This document shows, one piece after another, positions 1,410 to 23,575 of a stretch of DNA of 24,000 nucleotides. The stretch is from Rhizobium sp. P38BS-XIX (GTDB lineage Bacteria; Pseudomonadota; Alphaproteobacteria; Rhizobiales; Rhizobiaceae). The position numbers were made by a program, and so were the translations under genes. How positions within the stretch are numbered: the first letter of the stretch is position 1; every line of letters begins with the position of its first letter. The notes under the pieces were generated by a model. The model was not told the origin of the DNA. It did no database searches and was given only the letters and a program-made list of their open reading frames with translations. The stretch is from NCBI RefSeq assembly GCF_012641435.1, contig NZ_JABAIJ010000004.1, forward strand, positions 78,428 through 102,427, read 5' to 3'.

Positions 1410-2975
1410 CAGATTTCGTTGAAAAACTCGCAGGATTGGCTACTCATCCGCCCGATTTCGTTTTTCCGGGCGGCGTACCTATGCTTATGTGCCCTGCGCT
1501 GTGGCGCAGGACCTCAATTCATGTCGCTCTCACGCAGCAATAACGCCAGATGGCGGCGTTTGTGGTCTGAGTTTTGCCAGCCTCCTCAGGTTCTGCGCCG
1601 TTGCGGCAAGCAGGAATTCGTCTCGCGCACAACATGGTCCCCGAAGTCAAAGACGCGCCACCCGTAGAATGCGTTTGAGATGCGCGAAGAGCATCTCGAC
1701 TTTCTTCCGGCGGTGACGCGACAGTTCATATTTTGGTGTAGCCGCAATTGCTCTGGCAACATCACGCGCATCTTCATTGAGATCGCGGGGCACTTTACGC
1801 ATAGGCGTCTTAGGACAACAACACTGCTTCAGGTCACAGACATCACAGTCCTTTTTGCTGGCACGATAAATCCGTGTTCCTTCGGCCGTGATCCCTGATC
1901 TCGGCGTATCGTAAGTGCGGTGGAACTGCTTCAGCTCGTTCCCGGCAGGACAGATGTATCGCGCGTTCTCAGCTTCCCAGGCGAAATCCGAACGTGAGAA
2001 GGTGCCGTCTGTGCGGTTCGACTTGTCAAAGACAGGAATGTGCGGCGCGATCTTCTTCTTGACCAGCCATGCCAAGTTATCGGCGGAACCGTAAGCACTG
2101 TCGGCAGCCACATAGTCCGGCCTCAAGCCAAAGCGATTCTCGGTCCTTTCGAGCATCGTGCGGGATGCCCCGACTTCGGCTTGGCGGATCGCACGCGTCG
2201 CCTCCACATCGACAATGACACCATGATCGGCGTCTATCAGATAATTGGTTGCGTAGGCGAAGAAGGCATGGCCTTTGTGAGCGCCGGTCCATTGGGCGGC
2301 AGGGTCAAACGGGGAGATGAACTTTGGCGTCACTGGCGACGCAGCACCGAAAGCGGCATCATCGAGAACAGCCAGATACTCCTGTACCGAACGGCTAGCG
2401 TCTTCCTTTGCTTCCCACTCGGCTCCTGGTACCGAACACTGCTTATTTGCATCCTCTGCTATAAGGCTGGCATCGACGGCAAATCCTTCCGCGCCCACCA
2501 ATCCCTGAGCGAGGCATCGCTCCACCACCGTTTCGAACATATGTCGCAGGATATCGCTCTGCCGAAACCTGCCGTGGCGATTCTTCGAGAAGCTGGAGTG
2601 ATCAGGTACCTTGCCGTTCAATCCGAGGCGGTAGAACCAGCGGTAGGCGAGGTTGAGATGGACCTCTTCACACAGCCGCCGCTCCGAACGAATGCCCATT
2701 GCGTAACCGACAATCAGCATCCGCATCATCAGTTCGGGATCGACCGAGGGACGGCCAGTGCTGCTATAGAAAGGCTTCAACTGCTCTCGAACGCCATCAA
2801 GTTCGAGATGACGGTCTATTCCACGCAACAGGTGCTCGGCGGGGACGTGATCATCAAGGCAGAAGTCGTAGAAGAGCTGCCCCGGAGTTGCCTGACATCC
2901 CATCATCGCCCAATCCTCCGCAAATCAATGAGGCGATTGAATCACGGTATGGGAGCACCGACAACGCAAATTCTG
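1410..2975 (-). mobile_element. IS5/IS1182-family insertion sequence (boundaries approximate)
   Basis: A single DDE transposase gene is flanked by imperfect inverted ends: cagatttcgttg at 1410-1421 against the reverse complement of 2962-2975 (cagaatttgcgttg). A second GATTTCG/GATTTGCG-like copy lies about 50 nt inside each end. No clear target-site duplication was seen. Confidence 0.55.
1647..2906 (-). CDS. IS5/IS1182-family DDE transposase, ORF ended by an in-frame TGA (possible pseudogene)
   Basis: The N-terminus (LFYDFCLDDHVPAEHLLRGIDR...GRPSVDPELMMRMLIVGYAMGIRSERRLCEEVHLNLAYRWF) is typical of this transposase family. The C-terminal R-x3-E-x6-K signature is present (RKKVEMLFAHLK). After the TGA at 1647-1649 the same frame continues for 38 codons (LRGPCCARDEFLLAATAQNLRRLAKL...) to a TGA at 1530-1532. 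SD GGAGGA sits upstream of the tandem ATGs. Confidence 0.9.
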   Translation of the reverse strand: MMGCQATPGQLFYDFCLDDHVPAEHLLRGIDRHLELDGVREQLKPFYSSTGRPSVDPELMMRMLIVGYAMGIRSERRLCEEVHLNLAYRWFYRLGLNGKVPDHSSFSKNRHGRFRQSDILRHMFETVVERCLAQGLVGAEGFAVDASLIAEDANKQCSVPGAEWEAKEDASRSVQEYLAVLDDAAFGAASPVTPKFISPFDPAAQWTGAHKGHAFFAYATNYLIDADHGVIVDVEATRAIRQAEVGASRTMLERTENRFGLRPDYVAADSAYGSADNLAWLVKKKIAPHIPVFDKSNRTDGTFSRSDFAWEAENARYICPAGNELKQFHRTYDTPRSGITAEGTRIYRASKKDCDVCDLKQCCCPKTPMRKVPRDLNEDARDVARAIAATPKYELSRHRRKKVEMLFAHLKRILRVARL

Positions 2976-4848: not shown

Positions 4849-5808
4849 TTATGCTTTAGGCGTGAACAGCTTCGTGCCGGGGCAAACAAAACGCATCCAT
4901 TTCTCACCGTCAAAACGTGCGATGTCGTCATAGCCAAAGGACCACAACACATCGCCGATAGCCTGCAAACGATGCGCATTCTGCAATTTCGGAACAAGCC
5001 CGGTCTCGACCTTGGACAAGGTCCCCGAAGCATAGGTGTAAATCGCATTTACCGAGTTCACCCAGACTTGCCCCTTGAAAAAGGCGATGGAGAGGAATTC
5101 CTCATAGCAACCCAGGTTGCCAACACTGGTAAATCCACTTTGGGCGCTGCCGTGAAGAAGGGCGCCATTTCGACCGCAGGCCCACACCGTCCCGGAGGTG
5201 GGATCGGCCGCGACCGCGTTAAGCCAATCGCCCGACGGGTTGAATTCGTCCACCCAGATGCCATTGCTTCTGGAGCAGATCCGGCCTCTGCCACCCATTC
5301 TGGTCACGGCGTAGAATGACCCGCCCGACGCACACATGTCGGTTACGTCATAGTCATCATTGATGGACCCGAGCAACCCTTCGTCGAAATGTTCCCATTT
5401 TCCGGGGGCGATGCGCCGGTAGATTTGGCCAGCCAGGCCAAATGCGAAGAGTTCGTTGTTAAGCTGTTTGATTCCGCCGAGATAGCCAAGACCCAGGCAG
5501 CCGGACTTGTGCAGACCGGCATCGGCGATGTCTTCCTCGATACGCGTCGGAAGATGGAACCAGACCTTTCCTTCTTCCGAAACGCAGACAAATGCCGGAC
5601 GGTCCATGTCATCCGACTTGAACGTGCAGATGTCTCTGAAGATATCCTGGATATTCTCCAGCCCCCATTGGCCATCGGGTGTGCCGATGTCTTTAAGCAC
5701 GATGAGCTTGGTTGGCGGTTCGAATGGATCGCTGTCGCCAACATAGGCCAGGAACATGGCCAGATGGGGGTATTTGGCAAATCCGTTCCGAAAGCGTAGA
5801 TAGTCCAA
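4849..5808 (-). CDS. hypothetical protein, probable cognate immunity protein (beta-propeller-like repeats)
   Basis: The 319-aa ORF sits directly downstream of the effector candidate, with a 13-nt gap. It uses a TTG start at 5808 preceded by GAGGTG. Recurrent G-x-[VIL]-[WY] strand-like motifs occur (GKVWFH, GQIYRR, GSFYAV, GTVWACG, GQVWVNS, GDVLWSFG). The immunity role is inferred from position only. Confidence 0.7.
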   Translation of the reverse strand: MDYLRFRNGFAKYPHLAMFLAYVGDSDPFEPPTKLIVLKDIGTPDGQWGLENIQDIFRDICTFKSDDMDRPAFVCVSEEGKVWFHLPTRIEEDIADAGLHKSGCLGLGYLGGIKQLNNELFAFGLAGQIYRRIAPGKWEHFDEGLLGSINDDYDVTDMCASGGSFYAVTRMGGRGRICSRSNGIWVDEFNPSGDWLNAVAADPTSGTVWACGRNGALLHGSAQSGFTSVGNLGCYEEFLSIAFFKGQVWVNSVNAIYTYASGTLSKVETGLVPKLQNAHRLQAIGDVLWSFGYDDIARFDGEKWMRFVCPGTKLFTPKA

Positions 5809-5821
5809 TTTTCACCTCGCT

Positions 5822-6472
5822 TTATTCCAGTCCGTCGCCAATGCCACGTCCGAACAATCTGTCTATTTGATTTTGGTTGGGAAGTGGGCTCTTTTGATGC
5901 CTGATGGGAGCGTCGTCACCCATCTTCTCGAACGCTTTATCGACTTGGGACTTCAGGTCGCCCATCTTCCCTTCGCATTCCGGCTTCACCTTCTTGATCG
6001 CGTCCATCGCAATATCTTTGACCTGACCAAGCGTAGCGCCCGGCCCAAGGTTTTTGACCGCCCGATCCATCAGTTGATGTACACTAGTGTGTTCGGTATC
6101 ATCAAGGCAGATGCTTGGCCCGTCATCCAGCGAGGGCGCGTTTGGCAGCCGCAGGCTGTCATCTAGTCGTTTTCCGGCTCGAATCACATAATCGGCAATG
6201 ATGTGGTGTTTCTGCTGGTTCTCGCCGCATTTGAGTTTGTTGTACTTGTCAAATTTGCATTTGTCTTCTGGCGGGCAATTACCTGTTGCACAGGTGGCGG
6301 TGTCGGCCTTGGTCTGCGCGTCAGCCTGTGTGTCCGCATTCGGGGTATCCGAACTCAACCCAACGGCCAAAAGGATACCGCCGCCGATCCATGTTGCGGC
6401 GTTGACGAGCGCGGGACCCCAAACCGGTGCAGTTTCTACTACGAAATACCCTGCAGCCACTGCGGGAGGCAT
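5822..6472 (-). CDS. putative T6SS effector: hydrophobic N-terminus plus Cys-rich HNH/EndoVII-like C-terminal region
   Basis: The 216-aa ORF has an ATG that overlaps the TAA of the DUF4123 gene (TAATG at 6470-6474). Residues 1-40 are hydrophobic (AVAAGYFVV...WIGGGILLAVGL). QKHHIIADY (H89, H90), LPN(111)AP and TEH(128)TSVH(132) give an HH...N...H...H spacing reminiscent of the AHH/GHH/SHH toxin clades. Confidence 0.7.
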   Translation of the reverse strand: MPPAVAAGYFVVETAPVWGPALVNAATWIGGGILLAVGLSSDTPNADTQADAQTKADTATCATGNCPPEDKCKFDKYNKLKCGENQQKHHIIADYVIRAGKRLDDSLRLPNAPSLDDGPSICLDDTEHTSVHQLMDRAVKNLGPGATLGQVKDIAMDAIKKVKPECEGKMGDLKSQVDKAFEKMGDDAPIRHQKSPLPNQNQIDRLFGRGIGDGLE

Positions 6473-7422
6473 TAGCGATTCTCCCTTGCATAATTGAGAC
6501 TGGCCTGAAGCAACAGCTGTACACGCTTGTCGGGAGAAACAGCGGGATCGCGCGCCGTCATGACTTTGACGACGTCAGGATTTGTCGTGAGTTTGCCTGA
6601 TGTCGCGACCTGCATATAGCTCCACCGGGCAAGTGCGGCCTCGCTTTGAACGCCGTATTTGCGCCCCTCATTTATGTAGCCTTGCGTTACCGCGGACAGT
6701 TCGGCGTCGCTCATGGCGGCCGTTTGCGATGGGGCGACATTGCGCAGGTAATTGCAGATCCGCCGCTTCGAAGCCTGTGCCATCAAATCGTTCGTGGCCG
6801 ATATCTCACTTGGCGTAATAGCAAGCAGGCCTTTCGGCATGGGCGGGAGGTTGTTGGACTTTGTCACCCGCTTCATACCGCCATAGTCTGTGGCATTCAT
6901 GAAGATGGTCGTCGCCGGGCCGAGAATTCGTGCGAACTGCGACTTCGTAAATGAATGCAGCAATGATCCCAGTACGTTCGGGTCCCAATGGCGGAACAAT
7001 ACACGCTCATAGACAACTTTCTTGCCTGATCGGCCATCATTGCCCGCGATGCGGTCGTCCGGGACCAGAATCCGGTTGAGGGTTCGCAGGTGCTTGTAGA
7101 GCGCCGCCTCTCCGGCCGGACATGACCAGAACACAGCACAGGGCTTTTCCAACGCAAAGTCTGCAACCTGATCGCAGATATGCCTGTTGACGAGCGAAAC
7201 CAGCCACGGTCCGTCGCGCCGCCACTTGGGATCGCCTCCCGCGAGGAACAATGACCGGGCGGGAATGTCCAGACTGAGCAACTCATGCTGCAAATCATCG
7301 AAATGCGCGCCATCAAGCACGGCAAACGCTGGTCCCGCCGCCATCATGTCGGCGAGTCCCGTACGAAAACGCGTTGAGAACGCGTCCTCTTCGGCTGGCA
7401 TTGCGGTTTGCATGGCTGTCAT
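6472..7422 (-). CDS. DUF4123-domain T6SS effector adaptor/chaperone (Tap/TEC-like)
   Basis: FAVLDGAHFDDL, GPWLVSL and VLFRHWDPNVLGSLL correspond to the conserved DUF4123 blocks (YALLDGA, PWLV, FRFYDPRVL). The ATG lies 4 nt after the vgrG stop, with GAGGA upstream. Confidence 0.9.
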   Translation of the reverse strand: MTAMQTAMPAEEDAFSTRFRTGLADMMAAGPAFAVLDGAHFDDLQHELLSLDIPARSLFLAGGDPKWRRDGPWLVSLVNRHICDQVADFALEKPCAVFWSCPAGEAALYKHLRTLNRILVPDDRIAGNDGRSGKKVVYERVLFRHWDPNVLGSLLHSFTKSQFARILGPATTIFMNATDYGGMKRVTKSNNLPPMPKGLLAITPSEISATNDLMAQASKRRICNYLRNVAPSQTAAMSDAELSAVTQGYINEGRKYGVQSEAALARWSYMQVATSGKLTTNPDVVKVMTARDPAVSPDKRVQLLLQASLNYARENR

Positions 7423-7426
7423 CTGT

Positions 7427-9874
7427 TCAGGTCCTCACAAAAGGTGTTGAGGACTTCGCCATCAACCTGGGACAAGAGGGGCCTTGGCCCGGTCCGCCCT
7501 TTCTAAAGTCAATTTGGTCGCCTTCGATATCGATCTTAAGGGCGTGAAGCTTGATGCCTTGTTTGTTGATGGCAATGTAGCCGCCTGGAGCGGACAAACG
7601 AATCTCGGTACCGGCGTAGATCTCCCACACCTTGGACTCACCGTGAAATTTCTCCCCCGAGGCGATGTTGTAGAGTTCGCCGACCTGGACATTGATCTTT
7701 TTGCCGACGTTAGTGTGCTGTTCTTTGCCCACCTTTTCAATAAATGTTTGCCCCACATGTGTGACTTTACTCATGCCGATCTGTTCGACGCGGGCAATAC
7801 CAATGCTGTCATGCTTGAAGGTACCGGCTACGGTGTACATCATCCCCGGCAGGGAAAAGAGACCGCCGACATCCTGGCCCACGCCGGCTCCGGCTCCGGC
7901 AAGAGCCGTGCCAGCATCTGCGCGGGGGCTGGGACCGGACACCACGCCCTCCCGTGCGCTCAATCCCTCGCCTGATAGGAATCCCAGTGCCGAGGAAGCA
8001 ATCGACATGGCGAAGCCACCAAGTTCCGCGCCACCGCCACCAGCGATCTGACCCGCCTGCTGCAAGAGGCTGGCGGTTTGCCCTGCGAGCCCGGCTACAC
8101 CGGCGAGCGCTCCGAGAGCGCCAGCACCGGTCCCTCCCACGGTGAGGTGATAGGAGCCTCCGATTTCATGCTTCTGGTTGTTGGCGACCTCGACCGATCG
8201 ATTACCTCCGACGGAATGAACGTCGTGGCTGTCGATACGCGCCGTGCGGTCGTTGAGCACACGGGTCGTGTGGTCCTTCTGGGCATGGAAAAACATGTTC
8301 TCCCCGCCCGTCTTGTCTTCCAGCGAAAATTCGTTGAAGCCAACGCTCTTATGGGAGTTGGAGCGGAAGGTCGAACGTGTCTTGTTCGCCGGCAAATCGT
8401 AAGGCACTGTTTGCTTGGCATTGGGCGCGAGACCTAAGACCACAGGGCGATCCGGATCGCCGCCGATGAACGCAACCATTGCCTCCTGACCGATACGGGG
8501 GATGATCTGTCCGCCCCAGGTCGACCCAGCCCATGCTTGTGAGACCCGTATCCAAGGGCTATCGCTTCCGTCCTTCTTGGCCTTGCGATCCCATGGCATC
8601 CAAAGCTTAATCCGACCATGCTGATCCGTGTGGATCTCTTCTCCTTCCGGCCCGGCGATAAAGCCAACATGCACGCCGTCGATGCGCGGCTTTGAGGTGG
8701 TTCGGTGTGGCGTCGCCGGGACCCGGGCTGGCAGTGCAACAAAGCGGTTGGAATATTCCGGCTCATCCTGATCGGCCGCCTCGTAGGAATGATCGCGCGC
8801 ACTCACCTCCAGCTTGTGGACGACCATCTCTTCGAACTTGTTGGCGGGATTGGCGACATCATAGGGCTGGAATTTCTGGCCGACCTCCAGGGTGCGGACG
8901 GTCGAAGCGCCTTCGGTGAGATTGTGATCGACTTCGGTGGCCTGCATGCGCCACCTTGATTGCTTCTCCACCTCGGTGCTGTCGATGCCTTCGGATGCGG
9001 AGCCGACCCCGTAACCGCCGACGACTGAACCGAACTCGAACAGCTCGTACTTCTGATTGCCGTTGAGTTCGATCAACGAGGGAGCGTTTGCCGTGGGAAT
9101 ATCGACACGCAGGAAATTGTAATCCGCACCCGTGCGACGACCGGGAGAGTATTCGAAGCGCTGCAGCCAGTTGTTGATATGGTTGCGATCGGAACTCCCG
9201 AGAGCATAACGGACCTTTCCGTCTGCCTCATTGGTGGGCTTGTCATAACCGGATTGATGATCGGCAAGGACAAGGACGTGCTTGGCCGAGACCGCTCCTT
9301 TATGGCCACCCTCATGTCGGAAATAGTAGAAAATCCCGTCTGCTTCGAGACGACGAGTGAGGTAATCGAGATCCGTCTCGCCAGCCTGGACGGCATAGAC
9401 CATCGGCTTGGGTTGATGGATCACGCCCGATACGTCCGGCGCGGGCAAGCCGTGTTCGGAGAGCAACATCTGTGCAACATCGATACTCGACAGATGCTGC
9501 CATGTGCGCCAGTCCGATTTCTGGCTGAGCAGAAACAGTTGCGGCCTGATCACCAGCGTATAGGCCCGCCCGCCCCTGGTCAGCGGCGGGCCGGCCGTCA
9601 CGCTCTGAACGAGCCCGTTCCAGGTCTTGCGCTGTCCTTCTCCGATTTCCAGCGACACGTCGGCAAGCGTGGCAATCAACCTCTTGGGGTCTATCTCGCC
9701 ATCCTTGGCACGTACATCGATGCGCAAGTCGAACAGTTCATTGATCCCGGCTCGATAATAGAGGCGTTCTGCCAGAAGGACATCGGCTCCCAAAACCGTT
9801 TCAATCCGGAGGGTTCGATCAACCTGCGAAAAACCTTCGCTCATCAGCGTATCGCCAAGTTCGTCAAGCGCCAT
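7427..9874 (-). CDS. vgrG: T6SS spike protein VgrG (TssI) with Gly/Ala-rich C-terminal region
   Basis: The 815-aa ORF has a typical VgrG N-terminus (FSQVDRTLRIETVLGADVLL...INELFDLRIDV), a gp27/gp5-like core (GIFYYFRHE, RVSQAWAGSTWGGQIIPRIGQEAMVAFIGGDPDRPVV) and a beta-helix repeat region. Confidence 0.95.
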   Translation of the reverse strand: MALDELGDTLMSEGFSQVDRTLRIETVLGADVLLAERLYYRAGINELFDLRIDVRAKDGEIDPKRLIATLADVSLEIGEGQRKTWNGLVQSVTAGPPLTRGGRAYTLVIRPQLFLLSQKSDWRTWQHLSSIDVAQMLLSEHGLPAPDVSGVIHQPKPMVYAVQAGETDLDYLTRRLEADGIFYYFRHEGGHKGAVSAKHVLVLADHQSGYDKPTNEADGKVRYALGSSDRNHINNWLQRFEYSPGRRTGADYNFLRVDIPTANAPSLIELNGNQKYELFEFGSVVGGYGVGSASEGIDSTEVEKQSRWRMQATEVDHNLTEGASTVRTLEVGQKFQPYDVANPANKFEEMVVHKLEVSARDHSYEAADQDEPEYSNRFVALPARVPATPHRTTSKPRIDGVHVGFIAGPEGEEIHTDQHGRIKLWMPWDRKAKKDGSDSPWIRVSQAWAGSTWGGQIIPRIGQEAMVAFIGGDPDRPVVLGLAPNAKQTVPYDLPANKTRSTFRSNSHKSVGFNEFSLEDKTGGENMFFHAQKDHTTRVLNDRTARIDSHDVHSVGGNRSVEVANNQKHEIGGSYHLTVGGTGAGALGALAGVAGLAGQTASLLQQAGQIAGGGGAELGGFAMSIASSALGFLSGEGLSAREGVVSGPSPRADAGTALAGAGAGVGQDVGGLFSLPGMMYTVAGTFKHDSIGIARVEQIGMSKVTHVGQTFIEKVGKEQHTNVGKKINVQVGELYNIASGEKFHGESKVWEIYAGTEIRLSAPGGYIAINKQGIKLHALKIDIEGDQIDFRKGGPGQGPSCPRLMAKSSTPFVRT

Positions 9875-10196: not shown

Positions 10197-10925
10197 TTGC
10201 CTTCGAGCAGGCACGCGACTATCGGACGCAATCATGCACGCTTTGCCGCCGGCAACCCTGAGAGAGACGGCAAACTGCCTGAGAAGCGACAACACAGCGG
10301 CGTATCCGGCGTCTACAAGGCAGATCATCCTCAGCCGCGATGGGTCGCCTACATTTCCTCTCCCGACGGAGCAAGGACAAAGAGCTTTTCGATTTCAAGG
10401 TATGGTGATGTCGACGCAAAACACCGTGCGATCGTGAAACGGCAAGAATGGCTCGCGGATACTCCTTCAGCCTTTCACATCGTCGGCGAGGAATCCGAGG
10501 CGGTCGCACTCAGACAATTTCCCGAACGCCTTGAGCACGTCCCCAATGTCGCAAGTAGTCATCTAATGACTCGCGAGGCAATCGACGAAATTCTAGCAAA
10601 AATAGACACGGATTCCGATGCTCAGCGTCCCCTGCGGCTTCGAGTAACGGTCCATTATGATGCCAATTCCCGACTGAGGGCCATGGTCGCAAACAACAAG
10701 CCTTCCACACAGATGAAGCAGATAAGCGTTGGTACACAACGTCACCTGCTCGACAAACCTTTGGCACTGATGGGTCGTCGACTTCACCGCGCCATCACTG
10801 AGCTTTGCGGAGAGGATGTCGCTGGGGCGTTTCGGACTGAGCACGCAGGGCGCTTACTAGATCCCGACTTGTTGGACGAGAAACGGAGCGCAAACGTTGT
10901 GGTTTATGTCGCGGAACGCTCGTGA
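10197..10925 (+). CDS. AP2/ERF-like DNA-binding domain protein; longest ORF of an apparently frameshifted gene
   Basis: The ORF carries an AP2-like block (SGVSGVYKADHPQPRWVAYISSPDGARTKSFSISRYGDVDAKHRAIVKRQEW). It has only a TTG start. An upstream AP2-like repeat lies in another frame (see the finding), so this may be a pseudogene spanning about 10010-10925. Confidence 0.55.
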   Translation: MPSSRHATIGRNHARFAAGNPERDGKLPEKRQHSGVSGVYKADHPQPRWVAYISSPDGARTKSFSISRYGDVDAKHRAIVKRQEWLADTPSAFHIVGEESEAVALRQFPERLEHVPNVASSHLMTREAIDEILAKIDTDSDAQRPLRLRVTVHYDANSRLRAMVANNKPSTQMKQISVGTQRHLLDKPLALMGRRLHRAITELCGEDVAGAFRTEHAGRLLDPDLLDEKRSANVVVYVAERS

Positions 10926-14114: not shown

Positions 14115-16091
14115 TCAGCTATCCACTCTTGGCTGTCGCCAGCCATGTCTGCCCGTCAAGAGCTGGATGTCAGCAAACGCTATCTCGGTCCAGAAATCTC
14201 TCGTCCCGAACGTGAGGTGCTTTAGAGGACGGAATGCGGCAGACACGGATGGCGCACGATCCAGTGCATAGAGTAGCTGGCCAAGGTCCATCCAATAAAC
14301 ATCGATGAAGTATGGGAACAAATCGAGCTCTCCTCGGTCATTGGTGGGCGCGATCTTGGCGAGCCGATCAAGAACCTCGGTTGTTGCCGCATTGAAGTCC
14401 TCAATAGCCTTTACATCTTCGGCCATAGGGCTGAGCGAACCGAACCTTCGGCCCAGAATTGCCGGCATGGCATTGGCGGTGAGCAACCGGTCCATGATTG
14501 GGCCGTAGCTCAGCGGAGAAACAGCCACCTTGAAAACCGTGAGATCTTCCGTCTTGTCGTCACCGGAAGTCAGGGGCGGTAGACCAGTCTTACGAAGATA
14601 GAAGTCGTGGCGCACCAGTTGCTTCAGCATCGCAAGGAAACTATCGGCGTAGTCGATAAATCCCGAGTAGATGATCCCCGATCGTGCTTTGGCGGTGAGC
14701 GACTTGGCCTTAGTCTCGAACAGCACGAGCGCGCCTTCATCCCGCGTGCCGACGTCAAGTTGAAACACATGGTTGTCGCGTTCGTAGGATACATCCGGCG
14801 CCACAATGGGTGGCGACTTCTCGCGGCACGCGGCCGCAATCGCCAATTCCAGCACCTGCCCCGTAACTTCGGCAGCTCGCGCTTTAGGTAACCGTTGCCA
14901 GATCAACCTAAACAGCATCTCGCAGGCGGCGTTGACCGCAAGCGGACGCGGCAGCAAGGCGACGCTGTTGTCCGGTGCTTCGAAGATCAGAAACCTGTCC
15001 TGGTTTCGGCGGTGACTGTCTGCCGGTTCTTTGTAGCCGGGATTGACCTTGTCTTTGTTGCCGAAAGCTTCGCGCCAAAGGATCGGGTGCGAAGCACGAA
15101 CTGGCCCGGATGCGAAAAGCCGAAGTTCGGTATCGTGACTCTGAACGAGGAGGAGCCGCAGCTCGTTCAGTAGATCGATTAACTTGAACCCGAGCTTTTC
15201 CTCATCGACCGGCTTCAGGCAAGCTTTCAGAGCATCGCCAATTTTCATCACGATGAGCTGCGGCGCCTGCGGAAGCGAAAACAGCTCGCGCCATGTGATA
15301 CTTTCCCTCAGAACCCGCTCGAACTCCTCTGGCGGAATCCCAGCCATTTGCTCGTACTGGCTGTATCGCTGGCAGTCGTGGATGGCGGCAAAGTCTCTCG
15401 CCAAATCCGTTAGCGTTTTCCAGGCAACCTCTGGCTTGTTTGCGCTGCCCGGAGAGCCCAGGTTAGCGATGGCAAGTGTTAGGAGCCAGCCCCATGGATA
15501 GGCGGGCTCATACTCTCCCGGCGTTGATGATACCCTGTTGCCGAAGATGAAAAACCCGTCATGGACTGCCTTGCTCTCAACCAATACCCGAAAAATCTGC
15601 TGGGCGCAGGAAGCTCCCCCTAAAAGCTTCACCAGCGAGATAACCTGATCGCAGATTTGCTTGACGGTTTCCAGCGATGCATACGGTCCGAAAGCCGAAG
15701 CTTCAATTCTATATCCTCGCTTCATCAGGCGACCCGCGGCCTTACCAACATAAACTACCCGCTCGGGCCATGACGGATCCTTAAGAAAGTCAGGCTGCTT
15801 CTTCGCCCAGCATATCGCTTCCATCCACGCCTCTGGGTGGTCGAAACCGACATATCGATCCCCGGACACATCCTTGCTCAATATGCCAAATGTGATTGCA
15901 ACTGCTTCGGACATTAGACCTGCTGAGGCCAAAATCTTAATTGAGTGCGACAATCGCCTGAGATCTGCTGCGTGCAAGCCACCTTCTGCAGCCGCTAGAA
16001 GTTTTCTGGGCGGACGCGGGTCGGCGAAGCAGCTCTCCTCGGCGTTCAGGAAATATTCCTCGAAAAGCTTATGATCATCTTTGTGCAGCAT
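14115..16091 (-). CDS. hypothetical 658-aa protein with PD-(D/E)xK nuclease core
   Basis: Long ORF. The core runs GQVLELAI (helix E), then FQLD(446)VG, then LVLFE(459)TK(461)AK; D is at nt 14754-56, E at 14715-17 and K at 14709-11. This is the classical D...ExK arrangement. No Walker A motif. Confidence 0.9.
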   Translation of the reverse strand: MLHKDDHKLFEEYFLNAEESCFADPRPPRKLLAAAEGGLHAADLRRLSHSIKILASAGLMSEAVAITFGILSKDVSGDRYVGFDHPEAWMEAICWAKKQPDFLKDPSWPERVVYVGKAAGRLMKRGYRIEASAFGPYASLETVKQICDQVISLVKLLGGASCAQQIFRVLVESKAVHDGFFIFGNRVSSTPGEYEPAYPWGWLLTLAIANLGSPGSANKPEVAWKTLTDLARDFAAIHDCQRYSQYEQMAGIPPEEFERVLRESITWRELFSLPQAPQLIVMKIGDALKACLKPVDEEKLGFKLIDLLNELRLLLVQSHDTELRLFASGPVRASHPILWREAFGNKDKVNPGYKEPADSHRRNQDRFLIFEAPDNSVALLPRPLAVNAACEMLFRLIWQRLPKARAAEVTGQVLELAIAAACREKSPPIVAPDVSYERDNHVFQLDVGTRDEGALVLFETKAKSLTAKARSGIIYSGFIDYADSFLAMLKQLVRHDFYLRKTGLPPLTSGDDKTEDLTVFKVAVSPLSYGPIMDRLLTANAMPAILGRRFGSLSPMAEDVKAIEDFNAATTEVLDRLAKIAPTNDRGELDLFPYFIDVYWMDLGQLLYALDRAPSVSAAFRPLKHLTFGTRDFWTEIAFADIQLLTGRHGWRQPRVDS

Positions 16092-16849
16092 CGGGCCACA
16101 CTATTCGATCCATCAGTCTTGCAAAAGGTTCCCGCTATCAGAAGGAGTGTATTAGAATAACTGCTTTTACATCCGATCATTGTTGAATGACCACAGTAGG
16201 TGCGCTCACCGCTCAAATGTGGCAACCATGGAGCGACCACTATATGACTGAGCTGCTTAAAACCTGACGTGCAGGATACCAACCCATCACTGCCAAAGGA
16301 GTTACGCAATCAGACCGGCAGCTCTCCAACGTCGGCGTTCCGATTTATATGGCTGACATAAAGCTGCGAAGCTAGCGAAGGTTTCGCCTTGAAGGGATAA
16401 GAACCGCCGGCCCGTAATCTGATTTGGCTAAGCTATTGAAAAACATCACCGCGGCGTGACGTTAGTCTACGTGACCGAACACACCGACCGGCGGATTTCA
16501 TGCGAATCCAACGTTGTGCGACACTTATTACCAGCACGAGATCACAGGGGTTTTTCATTTCCTCTCGCGAATGCTCAAACATCCGCGACCTAATTCGCGC
16601 CAACAGGGTTGCCATGCACATTGCCGGCGGGCAAAAAGATCATGGCCATATTTCCCGGCATAACCTATTTTGAGCGGTTGTTAATCTTAGACAGCGCATT
16701 ATAAATTGAGCCGCCGCGAGAGCCAGAGGCGTCCGCTCTGGACAGCCAAATGCGCTTTCTGCGGCTTGACGGCGTCAGTCACTCTCTTGGGCGAAACCCA
16801 TGCCCGACGCAGTACCGGCTCAGGTCATCGTTCTTCACTCGATAAGTCG

Positions 16850-17839
16850 TTAGAGGAAAATGTTGTTGCCGACGTCCATGAACGAGGCGAAGCCAAGATG
16901 ACCTTCGAGATGAATTTTCACCAGATAATTGCCATCTTGAAGCTGTGCAGGAAACCGCCAGCTCGTTGACGGCAGGGGTGGTCGCGCTGGGCTAGAGGGA
17001 TTTCGGTAGTCGACGCGCTTTGCCCCGTCAGACGACCACACATCGACACGGATATCGATAGGTGCGTAATCCTGTCGAGGGCTGAACTGTGCAACAACGC
17101 CATCACGCGCGATCGCGACTTTTTCGACGTAGACGAAACGCTTGTCGAATACGAGCAGGTCATCAGATACCAACACGCGGTCGCGCCACCCGTTGGCGTC
17201 AGGTCCGAGCATATGGAGGAGCGTCGATGCCTCTGCATCCGTCCTGCAGTAAATCCATTGCAAGGTTTGAGCCAATGACATCGGTGACGTCACCAAAACC
17301 TCCGCACACCGGTGATCAATGATTGAGCGATCACCTGCGATATCGCCTTCATGATAGACCTTGTGGAAGGGTATCGACGAAAAGTAGGCCTCGGTGTCAC
17401 CCACTGAAGCAGACGCGAGCTGCATGTTCCGGTCGCTAAAGCACACACCATCCCGAAGAAGGACGCTCCGAGCGTCGAAAACGAACATGATCAGGATCGG
17501 GGCATGGGAATTCTCGCCGTGGGCGCACTCGCCAGGCTTGCGGATACCCTCGATATGCCATTGCGTCGGAGTTCGCGGCCGGAAGTAAATCCGACCGAAC
17601 TCGTGTGCATGGTTGCGTGCGTCGATCACGCCAACGCCGGCAACATCCCTCACCCGCGCATTCTGGGCGTCGTTTCTCGACCTGAGATTCCCGTCTCTCA
17701 GGATTGCCACCGCGTTTTCGATTGGCGCATGATGAAAAAGCCTTGCCGGCCACCGACCACGATAGGGTCGGTAGCTCCCCGCCAGATTTGCCGACCAGGT
17801 GGCGATATGGCTGTCTACAAAAGCACCGCTCAGTGCCAT
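16850..17839 (-). CDS. darT: DarT-like DNA ADP-ribosyltransferase (DUF4433) with ~95-aa C-terminal extension
   Basis: RLFHHAPIENAVAILRDGNL, FGRIYFRPRTP, VCFSDRNMQ and HRCAE(180)VLV correspond to the conserved DarT/DUF4433 blocks (YHITHxxNL, YVPFYFxPRSP, FTDRH, AEFLV). I place the start at ATG 17839 (M87 of the listed 415-aa ORF), which overlaps the macro gene stop by 10 nt. Confidence 0.88.
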   Translation of the reverse strand: MALSGAFVDSHIATWSANLAGSYRPYRGRWPARLFHHAPIENAVAILRDGNLRSRNDAQNARVRDVAGVGVIDARNHAHEFGRIYFRPRTPTQWHIEGIRKPGECAHGENSHAPILIMFVFDARSVLLRDGVCFSDRNMQLASASVGDTEAYFSSIPFHKVYHEGDIAGDRSIIDHRCAEVLVTSPMSLAQTLQWIYCRTDAEASTLLHMLGPDANGWRDRVLVSDDLLVFDKRFVYVEKVAIARDGVVAQFSPRQDYAPIDIRVDVWSSDGAKRVDYRNPSSPARPPLPSTSWRFPAQLQDGNYLVKIHLEGHLGFASFMDVGNNIFL

Positions 17840-18741
17840 TGCAGCGTCATCTGTTCGGTTGACTGGGCATCGGCGGGCGCAATGCTCGTTGCCGGTTGGG
17901 CCAGTTCTAGTGCCAGCTCGGATGCCGCGTCGCCGAAGCGCTGTATTTCGATGAGACGGACGAATGGTAGCAAAGCAAGGAGCGATATCAGCGCGCTCCC
18001 ACTTTCGAACGCCGCCCAGCCGGCCTTCTCTTGAGTGAGAAAGCCCTTCTGGAGGGAAACCCAGATGCCCCAGAGGTCTTCGGCGTCGAAGGCCCACTCT
18101 ACATTGGGCGTCGATAGCCGGAGTTCGGTCCCATCATACTCAGCGCTGAGCCGTTCGTGCGAGCTCAAGTCGATGAAATTCGGTCCGGCGAGCTCGATGG
18201 CACGCGGAAGCATAGACAGAAATTCGGTGTAGGAGGGTGCAGTATCGATCTCCCCTGCCAGGATAGATGGCACGTGCTCCAGGTGTTCAGGCAAGCCGAT
18301 CTTCTTATCGAAGTCGTGGATAAAGATCTGGATTTTTAGGGGGGCTAGATAATGCTCCATCACCGGCTGCACGTTGTCCCAATTGAGACCTCCATTGCCA
18401 CAACCCAAACGCGGAAACGAGATTTCTCGGATTCCGAGCTCGGAGAAGCCACTTACGAACCTCTGAAGGCCCTGCTCGATCCATTCGAGTTTCGACGGAT
18501 TGCGCCAATGATCCTTCGTCGGAAAGTTCAGAACCCATTGGGTCGATCCTTTCCAAAGCCACAGCTTTCCCGGCCGAAGGAGCTTTTGCTCGCAGATCCT
18601 GCGATATGCCGCATACATCTGCGGCTCGCGGTCCCGGAACTCCTTTGCGATCCCTTTGCCCATGACTCCAACGCAATTCACTGTGTTGACCAGTGTCTGG
18701 GCGGACGACTCGAGCAGGCTGGTTCGACGGTAGATCAACAT
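17830..18741 (-). CDS. darG: DarG-like macrodomain protein (ADP-ribose hydrolase antitoxin candidate)
   Basis: From M39 of the listed ORF: MLIYRRTSLLESSAQTLVNTVNCVGVMGKGIAKEF...WVLNFPTKDHWRNPS...ISFPRLGCGNGGLNW. This is the DarG/TARG1-type macrodomain signature, followed by a ~150-aa C-terminal domain. The 38 upstream codons look non-coding. Confidence 0.88.
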   Translation of the reverse strand: MLIYRRTSLLESSAQTLVNTVNCVGVMGKGIAKEFRDREPQMYAAYRRICEQKLLRPGKLWLWKGSTQWVLNFPTKDHWRNPSKLEWIEQGLQRFVSGFSELGIREISFPRLGCGNGGLNWDNVQPVMEHYLAPLKIQIFIHDFDKKIGLPEHLEHVPSILAGEIDTAPSYTEFLSMLPRAIELAGPNFIDLSSHERLSAEYDGTELRLSTPNVEWAFDAEDLWGIWVSLQKGFLTQEKAGWAAFESGSALISLLALLPFVRLIEIQRFGDAASELALELAQPATSIAPADAQSTEQMTLQWH

Positions 18742-19326
18742 AGTGTTTGCCGCATTCCTTCCAACATAGTCTCGCGAGCATAGGTAGAACGAAAACGTGT
18801 TGATGTGAAGACATAGGCGGCATGTGGCATTGAAATCGAAATAGGCGCCCTTCAAAACCTCGAGAGGATGAAACTCGTATTGTCCCTCCCAACTGAAGTG
18901 GGTACCTGCTGATCAGTGACTTAACCTTACAGGGATGAGGAGATTTCACCTGGACGAGGAGGCCGTGGAGGTAGGAATTCGCCTAATTTTAACCGACCAA
19001 AGACGCTGAAGTTGAGGATCGAGCAGGAAGGTGCGATCTCACGATGGTAGCCAGGTCTTCAGCTGACGGAAATCGCGTACGCTGTTCTCGACAACATGAT
19101 CGGAGATTTTCTAATCATCGGAGTTATGGATAGCCAACTCGAGTAACAGTTTTCCCCTGCATGTTTGGCAAAAATGATACTCCCTGGCTAACGCAATGTC
19201 CTTGAACAATTCACGGGAAGGTAGCAATCTTGTAAGGGCTGACGGGAGCAAAAAATGGGCGATATGGCTTGTCCGTAGTGCCCCCCAAGGGGCCAAAGAA
19301 CTAGTTTGAAAAGATAGAGGGATTTG

Positions 19327-22600: not shown

Positions 22601-22769
22601 GTCTGGAGGCGAAGATGCCCAAAACGCCGCTGGCACATTCTCTGGCCTCGACGTGCTTTCCGGCGGCTCCAGACAAACCTGGCGGGAATTTCTGGTCAAT
22701 CCGCTCTCACAGAGGATTTCGGAGGAATGGAAGAAGCGAACTGCCAAGGAAATGTGGGAGGCTGCGTAA
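19632..22769 (+). CDS. CHAT-domain (caspase-like) protease with C-terminal TPR-like helical repeats
   Basis: 1045-aa ORF with a His-Cys dyad in CHAT context: NVLLFFGH(202)GGH (nt 20235-37) and PAFWIFWAC(245)SLAE (nt 20364-66). The C-terminal ~400 aa are alanine/leucine-rich helical repeats (e.g. YQGALKLYQDIRDLL). The start is GTG 19632 (AGGTG upstream) or GTG 19644 (GTGA overlap). Confidence 0.88.
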   Translation: MVGVVRIVDASIRTSLFKRTLTLSDIDRAADFIVPGRNLPFAPKPINLWSEDAQKQFDSCFGSSGIASDLDKRMFNRAGPTILRVPAAEADLVPWEAFQRQLDTANRRKLAIVRAIDQDKAFRFDKTPSRMRILALVGHPGDDTAFDPGNAQTFLTSVFNAAVTANPRVERAVVTQLRRQNLADCISVVTDLNPNVLLFFGHGGHSPPRIRLAAGDDGWMELGAFVDEVFMNASQRPAFWIFWACSLAENANQPDQHLDSPQMLSVLGERGGIAALAMRSRIQIRTARVMLEALLSAIAAGEPLEIAAGLSRAACLESFPETRGRMDYAAPAVWSRSEPVDRITWGADEAFPASWVALPLIATGNEFPEFAAGSADVDDVTASLAETWATPGRFFISTSNGGESVEDVAVRARLVGVAAMIRKRTGRPVVPVFLRTGTTFDQRLGNWAGDAHGYLDPRFHDRELAMAIASIATERLNGLSRLLAIPEVVVIFSEPPDRSAGWDVLANTPTGSSVVVLGRFPSAETAGWILDTLMFRPNAEELSNIIVEEPLGCAILGVIERPIALREVERMTGSSAGALDRLDPLLVRVGSRRVLAETVRKTLRDNLDKNVVVEAREKCIHFLSENSVEHDFDATVEVCNQHLALGRDAAAAEVVNAAWAVCGDLWSVQKRLRLFNLAATRAKLCDLLQDDLLLALAQAAVTAQETQVARLVLEAFRPRSATHKARRHAMLAECLKADAGRPAAIAGMWRHANDALVSAEAAVAAGEGMTETDVLAFRHDLARLEQYFRHDYQGALKLYQDIRDLLRTQAKNDMALAYLFAASSRNAAECLLDPAQRPLDPTIREQAEDLVEEGLGMVSMFSLKQVEAELLYTRARIAEAAGDDIAAAGLLAQLASGSSARNYPLLAAIANDRLAWNEQRQGRRVFSWEDLEGRLRMLDLFDHSWAARVAIKTRLRAAKLLYHRGSQLDLDRARQLLEENHREFRRLTHLSGGEDAQNAAGTFSGLDVLSGGSRQTWREFLVNPLSQRISEEWKKRTAKEMWEAA

Positions 22770-23575
22770 TGGGAACCGGAAGCTTCGGAGGTGGTAGCGG
22801 ATCCGTCGGCGGCGGCGGCTCGGGAAGCGGATCGAAAGGGCACGGCGGCACCTCGAATGGAGCAGGGAGCGACGGTGGCGGTGGTGCAAAGGGTTCTCTG
22901 TTGCGTGCCATCGAAGGTTTGCGGGAAATTACACGGCGCCTCACCGCGGACCCAGATCAGGGGCGTTTGACTCGAGTCATCAATGAGTTGCTGCGCGACC
23001 GGGGCAGAGCTACTTTTTTTAGCGACATGCTAACAGACGGGTTTGCCAACGCGCTTCTCGGCGACCTCCTCGCGATTGGCGCGAGACTGCGAGCCGGTGA
23101 GGGCTGGGCGCAAATTGCGCAAAGCTTCGGGGTCGATGCAGGCCTAGGATCGATGCAAGCCCTTTGTGACGCGTGCATCGACCAGGCCTTACGAGCTAGG
23201 GCCTACCAGGTTGATGACCGGTATATTGAAAGCGCCTCGGCGGCCTTCCGAGAGTTCATGGTCGCGTCGGTCGGCGGAGACCGCATTCTGGCAACCCGTG
23301 GCGACGTTGCGCAGGTCGATGCAGCGATTGACCGCAATGTCTTCGCCAATGCGATCGGCGGGTTCTTGGGCGACCTTATTGGCCAGGTCCTTCAGGCCGA
23401 GTCCTACGTCGACCTGGGCGCGGCAACTCCGGCGGTCCAGCAAGCCTCCAATACTCTGGCGATTGCAATCTACGACCGATTCGATGCGAAGTTCGTCCAA
23501 AAAGGAAAAGCCGAACGGCGCGATGCGCTTCGCGTCATCGGTGAAAATTACTTTGCCTTGGTGACCGCCTCATGA
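22769..23575 (+). CDS. hypothetical 268-aa protein with Gly-rich N-terminal tail (QatB-like?)
   Basis: The ATG at 22769 overlaps the CHAT gene stop (TAATG), and GGGAGG lies 7 nt upstream. The protein begins [27 protein letters not shown]...GGGGAKGS and continues as a helical domain. The QatB resemblance is from memory only. Confidence 0.8.

Follow-up and report, generated by a model that had tools for sequence, protein, structure and literature searches.

A macro-first DarTG-like gene pair in Rhizobium sp. P38BS-XIX and its probable place in a distinct lineage

Few systems are known that attach ADP-ribose to DNA bases in a reversible manner, and DarTG is one of them. In a 24,000-nucleotide stretch of DNA from Rhizobium sp. 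P38BS-XIX (contig NZ_JABAIJ010000004.1, positions 78,428 to 102,427; hereafter the window), a DarG-like macrodomain gene is followed on the minus strand by a DarT-like ADP-ribosyltransferase gene, that is, the antitoxin gene stands before the toxin gene. The question raised by this locus is whether it is an ordinary DarTG pair with exchanged genes or a member of a separate branch of the family. The initial annotation had taken it for an antitoxin-first variant, possibly a distinct DarTG subtype, and this proposal is borne out: the pair is part of a lineage of its own, and within that lineage the macro-first order is invariant (77/77 assessable loci). Judged from sequence and predicted structure, the locus is probably an intact, self-contained two-gene toxin–antitoxin and anti-phage cassette of a distinct, uncharacterised DarTG lineage, which is of the macrodomain type and closest to DarTG2. 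What is new is the macro-first DarTG lineage with its extra domains; the DarT and macro families were known, and RefSeq, through the Prokaryotic Genome Annotation Pipeline (PGAP), already names the pair generically as "DarT family protein" and "macro domain-containing protein".

Gene order, junction and extent of the lineage

For the lineage, the analysis covered 79 homologous loci together with two plasmids and the window. Directly upstream of the toxin gene, and on the same strand, there is a DarG-type macro gene in every locus whose order could be assessed, and five further loci were not assessable, being cut at a contig end or disrupted. On the minus strand of the window the junction of the two genes reads CA-ATGGCACTGA, which agrees with the reading frames and the 10-nucleotide (nt) overlap reported in the initial annotation (coordinates in Table 1), and the position of the DarT start inside the last codons of the macro gene implies translational coupling. 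Of 76 homologous loci, 36 have the same 10-nt overlap and 19 an ATGA overlap, and the remaining junctions range from -20 to +19 nt, except in three disrupted loci; the median lengths in the lineage are 302 amino acids (aa) for the macro protein and 327 aa for DarT. The gene arrangement is not a matter of chance, since homologous pairs repeat its start codons, its lengths and its junction. A conserved third gene was not found in the 79 loci, where the search gave only shadow open reading frames (ORFs) inside the two genes.

Canonical DarTG loci behave in the opposite way. Nine canonical plasmid loci were found with the macrodomain of Thermus aquaticus DarG, and in the eight that are annotated (8/8) a DUF4433 gene of 210–256 aa comes first and a macro gene of 340–363 aa follows. 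The ninth, on a Streptomyces plasmid with no upstream gene listed, was moved into a wider scan that also covered 80 metagenome loci found by canonical DarG macro alignment. Among these 81 loci, DarT came first in all 68 that were assessable and macro in none; DarT was not detectable in 13, eight of which were cut upstream. The combined count is DarT first in 76/76 canonical loci, against macro first in 77/77 loci of the lineage, so that the antitoxin-first order is uncommon in ordinary DarTG (0/76); Mycobacterium tuberculosis (Mtb) Rv0059/Rv0060 are DarT and DarG (PMC5179494). The initial annotation had likewise given the described operons as toxin first. Two Rhizobiaceae plasmids (L087 1725-3538 and L088 1776-3523) carry a toxin-first DarTG with an atypical DarT of 237–256 aa, which scores just 94 Pfam bits and shares 22–24% identity with the other canonical DarTs; in Rhizobiaceae hosts, then, DarT2 is itself a heterogeneous group.

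In neighbour-joining trees, the lineage and the sampled canonical DarTG2 are split for both proteins, each group being reciprocally monophyletic; a phylogenetic placement of both proteins had been proposed in the initial annotation. The identity of DarT is 12–25% between lineage and canonical members and 27–97% within the lineage. The lineage stands further apart than its gene order by itself indicated. Three traits that occur together define it across phyla: a macro gene that comes first and is tightly coupled to DarT, a fibronectin type III (FN3)-like C-terminal domain of the toxin, and a lineage-specific C-terminal domain of the antitoxin. The three traits travel together, because a profile of the antitoxin C-terminal domain built from alphaproteobacterial members alone matches 27 of 28 more distant members (E 1e-4 to 1e-55). 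The C-terminal beta-sandwich of the toxin, which measures roughly 100 aa, is found lineage-wide (77/77 assessable loci) and in 0/81 of the scanned canonical-type loci, of which 73 contain the canonical DarG C-terminal domain by hidden Markov model (HMM).

The lineage is of considerable extent. A word-indexed search with the 329-aa toxin reaches more than 440 protein clusters, clustered at 90% identity, and an exhaustive profile search gave 490 clusters at 50% identity with E ≤ 1e-30 and 1275 with E ≤ 1e-3, full-length members being 315–345 aa long. Relatives of the toxin occur in 258 of 185,579 GTDB species genomes, mostly of Alphaproteobacteria, and other hosts are Gammaproteobacteria, Burkholderiaceae, Chloroflexota, Latescibacterota, Planctomycetota, Myxococcota and Bryobacterales.

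Architecture of the two proteins

The start of the macro gene at 18741 (MLIYRRTS...) is backed by the family alignment. In relatives, the gene is called as 277 aa by PGAP in NZ_CP120216.1 (WP_233283484.1; L001 9979-10812) and as 303 aa in NZ_CP035001.1; since the family alignment favours the longer MLIYRRTS start, the 277-aa call is probably a start-site error. The conserved 5′ region upstream of the gene contains an AAGGAA motif resembling a Shine-Dalgarno sequence, together with CTTCAC-N17-CTACCT, a candidate promoter by inference.

The antitoxin ORF is assigned to Pfam Macro with 57.3 bits (cutoff 22) and to PADLOC DarG with 192.9 bits, the latter alignment being confined to model positions 1–145 of 329. 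In NCBIfam it stays below the equivalog antitoxin_DarG (NF048014), with 183.3 against 250 bits over model positions 6–150 of 338; both DarG models cease to align at about residue 145 of the antitoxin. For the domain up to this point, phmmer against the PDB gives the DarG macrodomains 5m31 (E 1e-33) and 5m3i (E 5e-32), Foldseek gives 5m3e/5m3i (template modelling score, TM, 0.81–0.83; 40% identity) and then human TARG1, and hhalign against canonical DarG macro gives E 2e-67. Lys76 in FPTKDHW (codon 18514-18516) stands opposite K80, the catalytic lysine of T. aquaticus DarG (FPTKKHW), in the alignment. By these comparisons the macro domain is a close relative of DarG (about 40% identity) with the catalytic-type lysine kept.

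The remainder of the antitoxin is different. The AlphaFold2 (AF2) model of the protein has a predicted local distance difference test (pLDDT) score of 83, and in it the C-terminal domain is an alpha/beta fold with a helix-helix-helix-hairpin element, which may be winged-helix-like, followed by a disordered tail. The domain has no match in Pfam, PADLOC or NCBIfam, and its 157-residue profile has no detectable sequence relationship to the C-terminal DarT-binding domain of canonical DarG (hhalign probability 0.3%), an absence at sequence level that does not fully exclude structural similarity between the two. The tail itself (aa 284–303; window 17833-17890, minus strand) is of low confidence, is predicted to be disordered and has a conserved QxxLxW, with which it ends in alphaproteobacterial members; several distant members have a related QLxLF. 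Its conservation is partly (Trp-His-stop) imposed by the overlapping DarT start codon. The persistence of a similar QLxLF in distant members with other junctions suggests that the tail is a short linear toxin-binding motif.

The toxin ORF scores 64.3 bits in Pfam PF14487 (cutoff 22.5; aa 35–222), where canonical DarTs score 94–219 bits, and 41.1 bits in PADLOC DarT, so that the DUF4433 and macro domains named in the initial annotation are both assigned by the HMMs of Pfam and PADLOC. When the 329-aa protein was searched against the PDB with phmmer, nothing was found at E ≤ 1, and a 30-sequence family profile reached Thermus DarT 7omv marginally (E 0.013). Comparison of the ADP-ribosyltransferase (ART) domain with eight canonical plasmid DarTs by hhalign gave a probability of 98.4% (E 6e-15, 20% identity over 179 columns). 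The AF2 model of the toxin (pLDDT 88.7, predicted TM score 0.88) matches Thermus DarT 7omy/7omv in Foldseek (E 1e-12, TM 0.73–0.75) and also Mtb DarT 7yk3, and no DarT1 structure is among its matches at E ≤ 1e-3. The ART domain is, by profile and model, a remote DarT homologue.

The roles of residues H13, N19, R51, M78, H119, E160 and others have been described for Thermus DarT (PMC9967889). In the alignments, H13 corresponds to H36, N19 to N42, R51 to R75, H65 to H79, Y71 to Y85 and E160 to E180; the 30-sequence family alignment shows no variation at H36, N42, H79, Y85 and E180, and conservation of at least 90% at R75. Glu180, the glutamate of AE(180)VLV that the initial annotation had described as intact, indeed stands in RCAEVLV (codon 17300-17302). 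Together with Lys76 of the macrodomain, these six residues make both active sites complete by residue. The position of Thermus His119 is occupied by an invariant Asn138 in the toxin family. This Asn was considered as a signal of guanine specificity, as DarT1 has Asn there, and was rejected: it is uninformative on the choice of base, because the thymidine-specific Mtb DarT and Thermosipho africanus DarT share it. The catalytic Asp that stands two positions behind the Arg in DarT1 was not found, the toxin having R75-N76-H77 and the family consensus being R-x-H, occasionally with E.

The C-terminal beta-sandwich of the toxin is predicted by AF2 with seven strands, mostly at pLDDT above 90. In Foldseek it matches the FN3 domains 5j7k and 6msv (probability 1.00, TMt 0.56–0.57), as well as a carbohydrate-binding module and Ig-like domains of GH2 enzymes. 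It has no match in Pfam, PADLOC or NCBIfam, and hhalign finds no counterpart in canonical DarT or DarG.

Table 1. Features of the locus and of its surroundings in the window
Feature	Position in window	Strand	Basis
Antitoxin gene, DarG-like macrodomain protein, 303 aa	17830..18741	-	ATG 18741, TGA ending 17830
Toxin gene, DarT-like ADP-ribosyltransferase, 329 aa	16850..17839	-	ATG 17839, TAA ending 16850
10-nt overlap ATGGCACTGA, DarT start codon within final macro-gene codons	17830..17839	-	sequence
Conserved 5′ region, ~200 bp upstream of macro gene	18742..18941	-	four-way DNA alignment
Macro domain, aa 1-146, DarG/TARG1 type	18304..18741	-	phmmer, Foldseek, hhalign
Antitoxin C-terminal domain, aa 147-303, lineage-specific	17833..18303	-	profile comparison, AF2 secondary structure
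ART (DarT) catalytic domain, ~aa 31-222	17174..17749	-	hhalign, Foldseek
Toxin C-terminal beta-sandwich, aa 236-323, FN3/Ig-like	16871..17134	-	AF2, Foldseek
Mobile cassette, maximal shared DNA	16388..19188	-	blastn vs Agrobacterium leguminum pTiCFBP4996, 94.7% identity
Cassette core common to three relatives	~16802-18929	-	blastn
VgrG (Phage_GPD, Gp5_C, OB domains)	7427-9874	-	domain matches
DUF4123 adaptor	6472-7422	-	domain match
Two ORFs without family match	5822-6472, 4849-5808	-	family searches
Flanking ORFs, 565 and 658 aa	12293-13990, 14115-16091	+, -	ORF list
Flanking ORFs, 1045 and 282 aa	19632-22769, 22727-23575	+	ORF list
Insertion sequence (IS)-type transposase (DUF772 + DDE_Tnp_1)	1647-2906	-	domain matches
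242-aa ORF, sub-threshold AP2 domain match (27 bits, cutoff 33)	10197-10925	+	domain match

Proposed working, known systems and rival explanations

If the pair works as its domains suggest, the toxin would transfer ADP-ribose from NAD+ to a base of single-stranded DNA, most likely to N3 of thymidine, because its partner is a DarG/TARG1-type hydrolase; macrodomains of this class with a catalytic Lys cleave thymidine-linked ADP-ribose (PMC9967889). The modification would block the replication of phage and host DNA, and the macrodomain would remove the ADP-ribose adduct. In canonical DarG, the C-terminal domain holds DarT stoichiometrically (PMC11543638). In this lineage the C-terminal domain of the antitoxin, or its QxxLxW tail, may replace that domain and also keep the toxin inactive, possibly via the beta-sandwich of the toxin. 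With the antitoxin gene first and the toxin start inside its stop region, translation of the toxin would hinge on prior translation of the antitoxin, which would be kept in excess; upon infection or plasmid loss this balance would be disturbed and the toxin set free.

The DarTG literature consulted describes three architectures: DarTG1 with NADAR, DarTG2 with a macrodomain, and DarHTG with a helicase and an ARH-like DarG3. DarTG1 (E. coli C7) resembles the lineage in that a divergent DarT clade is paired with a hydrolase that reverses the modification; DarT1 modifies guanine and its antitoxin is NADAR (PMC11543638), an example of a divergent DarT clade that has acquired a new base specificity. 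The antitoxin of the lineage is, in contrast, a macrodomain protein, and neither protein of the pair has a NADAR match in Pfam, NCBIfam or PADLOC; moreover, the catalytic Asp of DarT1 (R52-x-D54) is replaced by R75-N-H77, and DarT1 is toxin-first. DarHTG (Liu-DS3), which consists of the helicase DarH, DarT and the ARH-like DarG3 (NAR 2026, PMC13069673), is also a recently recognised non-canonical architecture and shows that the family is modular. The lineage differs from it in having no UvrD-like helicase or conserved third gene, and a macrodomain rather than an ADP-ribosylglycohydrolase (ARH) fold; the cassette measures just 2.1–2.8 kb. The DarTG fusion of Thermosipho africanus (7omu) combines DarT with a DarG-type macrodomain and is matched by both window proteins, but it is one fused chain with DarT at the N-terminus, whereas the window has separate genes, macro first, with an extra domain on each protein. 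The names "DarT3/DarG3" in the literature were followed up and set aside, as they are mostly artefacts of superscript citations, and the real DarG3, that of DarHTG, belongs to a different architecture. In this literature neither a macro-first lineage nor a beta-sandwich DarT was found described, although the supplementary trees of LeRoux 2022 and Schuller 2021 may mention the lineage; a published DarT tree of about 5,000 sequences may include members of the lineage without comment.

DarTG2, with Thermus aquaticus/Thermus sp. 2.9, M. tuberculosis Rv0059-Rv0060, enteropathogenic E. coli (EPEC) and E. coli defence isolates as references, is the known system that comes nearest. It shares with the lineage a two-gene module, an antitoxin whose N-terminal macrodomain is of DarG/TARG1 type and keeps the catalytic Lys (K76 for K80), the DarT fold with the equivalents of H13, N19, R51, H65, Y71 and E160, tightly coupled genes and mobile defence-island contexts. 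One might regard the locus as an ordinary DarTG2 with swapped genes and no meaningful subtype, whose biochemistry and neutralisation are those of Thermus, Mtb and EPEC DarTG; the nearness of the macro domain to DarG, the calling of the toxin as DarT by Pfam and PADLOC, the PGAP names and the Asn that also stands at the H119 position in thymidine-specific Mtb DarT all favour this. It is nevertheless improbable, as the order is invariant in the lineage and never reversed in the 76 canonical loci, both proteins form separate clades with low DarT identity between the groups, and both NCBIfam equivalog cutoffs are missed. The toxin is about 110 aa longer than that of DarTG2, with a two-helix N-terminal extension and the FN3/Ig-like C-terminal domain, which is absent from canonical DarT1 and DarT2; the antitoxin is about 50 aa shorter, its C-terminal domain being without detectable homology to the DarT-binding domain of DarG.

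Another explanation is that the toxin acts on a different substrate (another DNA base or sequence context, RNA or protein) and the macrodomain reverses that linkage, so that the system would be DarTG-like merely in a formal sense. The ART domain is very divergent, the distance from the family profile to 7omv being like that between DarT2 and DarT1 (E 0.24), the extra FN3-like domain could bind another substrate, and the change at Met78 points the same way; the guanine modification of DarT1 provides a precedent (PMC11543638). Against this speak the partner, which is of the DarG/TARG1 class that cleaves thymidine-linked ADP-ribose (PMC9967889), the equivalents of R51, H65, Y71 and E160, all invariant or nearly so, His77 in place of the DarT1-specific Asp after Arg, and the Foldseek search, which finds DarT2 and no DarT1 structure at E ≤ 1e-3. 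On balance a different substrate is rather unlikely. The third explanation, that a plasmid passively carries a remnant which is decaying or no longer functional, could appeal to the IS elements and mosaic region near the cassette, but it is effectively refuted: neither ORF is truncated, no catalytic residue is missing, purifying selection acts on both genes (ratio of nonsynonymous to synonymous substitution rates 0.07–0.16 among three Rhizobiaceae copies), and the same architecture is kept across several phyla.

Several points weigh against an active thymidine-directed cassette of a distinct macrodomain-type DarTG lineage. This reading rests on sequence and predicted structure; the ART domain is just about 18% identical to DarT2, and the toxin ORF falls far under the NCBIfam equivalog toxin_DarT (NF048013), with 28.1 against 150 bits. 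The position of Thermus Met78, a residue that stabilises the oxocarbenium ion (PMC9967889), is taken in the lineage by an invariant Thr92 and an invariant Gln93, while canonical plasmid DarTs and Mtb DarT retain Met; with M78 replaced by Thr-Gln, the target or the kinetics could differ. A contact between the two C-terminal domains is possible, and the evidence for it is their co-occurrence. A scan of the surroundings of the operon for sigma-70 consensus promoters and terminators gave matches at chance level, with no promoter above chance. DarT2 targets TNTC-type thymidine motifs. It can be put forward tentatively that the lineage is a third mechanistic class of DarTG, in which a new interface between the FN3-like domain and the antitoxin C-terminal domain or tail would serve neutralisation or phage sensing, and the Met78 to Thr-Gln change would give a target other than the TNTC-type motifs, for instance a different base, sequence context or nucleic acid.

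Mobility, neighbourhood and significance

The cassette is mobile: on Rhizobiaceae plasmids it travels from one defence-island context to another. Its identity is 97% to that of Agrobacterium leguminum pTiCFBP4996, 93% to Rhizobium acidisoli pRapFH23c and 91% to an Allorhizobium undicola contig, and by blastn the two relatives other than pTiCFBP4996 align with 91.5% over 16802-18941 and 91.1% over 16389-18929. The shared DNA of 2.1–2.8 kb includes the conserved 5′ sequence of about 200 bp, while the flanking genes are wholly different in each replicon that carries it; the neighbours in the relatives include TIR, SIR2, reverse transcriptase, HEPN/nucleotidyltransferase and VapBC genes. The plasmid pTiCFBP4996 and its sister plasmid pLN1 of A. 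tumefaciens share 99.9% identity through LysR-VapC-Phd/YefM, and past the breakpoint (L001 8529-8538 against L087 1621; window ~16388) pLN1 has a canonical darT-darG and pTiCFBP4996 the macro-first cassette. Because the two plasmids diverge at the cassette boundary, the two DarTG types are alternative occupants of one site, which by its sequence looks like a hotspot of defence-gene exchange.

In phages the toxin was not found, a tblastn search against 50,697 phage records giving no match. The macro protein is matched by 527 phage records, and among the matches listed it is essentially the macro domain only that is matched, apart from phage phiMa; such matches without a toxin are consistent with orphan DarG-like counter-defence genes. 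The match in the Thermus phage phiMa (MH673674.1, L171 1818-3574) extends beyond the macro domain, and phiMa was considered as a lineage member and rejected, as it carries a canonical toxin-first DarTG, with a DarT of 205 aa and then a DarG of 357 aa. Against the canonical DarT HMM its toxin reaches 198 bits, and its DarG has the canonical C-terminal domain.

The other genes of the window belong to a mosaic region, which the IS-type transposase fits. A type VI secretion cargo cluster (4849-9874, minus strand) comprises VgrG, the DUF4123 adaptor and, downstream of them, two ORFs that are plausibly an effector/immunity pair. The four large flanking ORFs, for which Pfam, PADLOC and NCBIfam give no match at E ≤ 0.01, are possibly defence genes not yet characterised; on visual inspection the one of 1045 aa shows a GHGG...WACS His/Cys pattern that recalls CHAT/caspase-like proteases. 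Bacterial AP2 domains, to which the 242-aa ORF shows a sub-threshold match, are usually tied to HNH or mobile elements.

Each branch of DarTG characterised so far has brought new chemistry or partners, that is, guanine modification with NADAR in DarT1, and a helicase with an ARH-fold antitoxin in DarHTG. The present lineage is widespread, occurring in hundreds of species, including on plasmids of plant-associated Rhizobiaceae, and current tools subsume it under "DarT family / macro domain protein". As a marker of the lineage, gene order is clean (macro first in 77/77 against 0/76), and an annotation or defence-finder rule may mis-score the lineage if it expects the toxin first or looks for the DarG C-terminal domain. 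The lineage lacks the only canonical element that is known to bind DarT and silence it, and its toxin has an added beta-sandwich, so that it would offer a directly testable case of re-engineered toxin control and possibly of trigger sensing.

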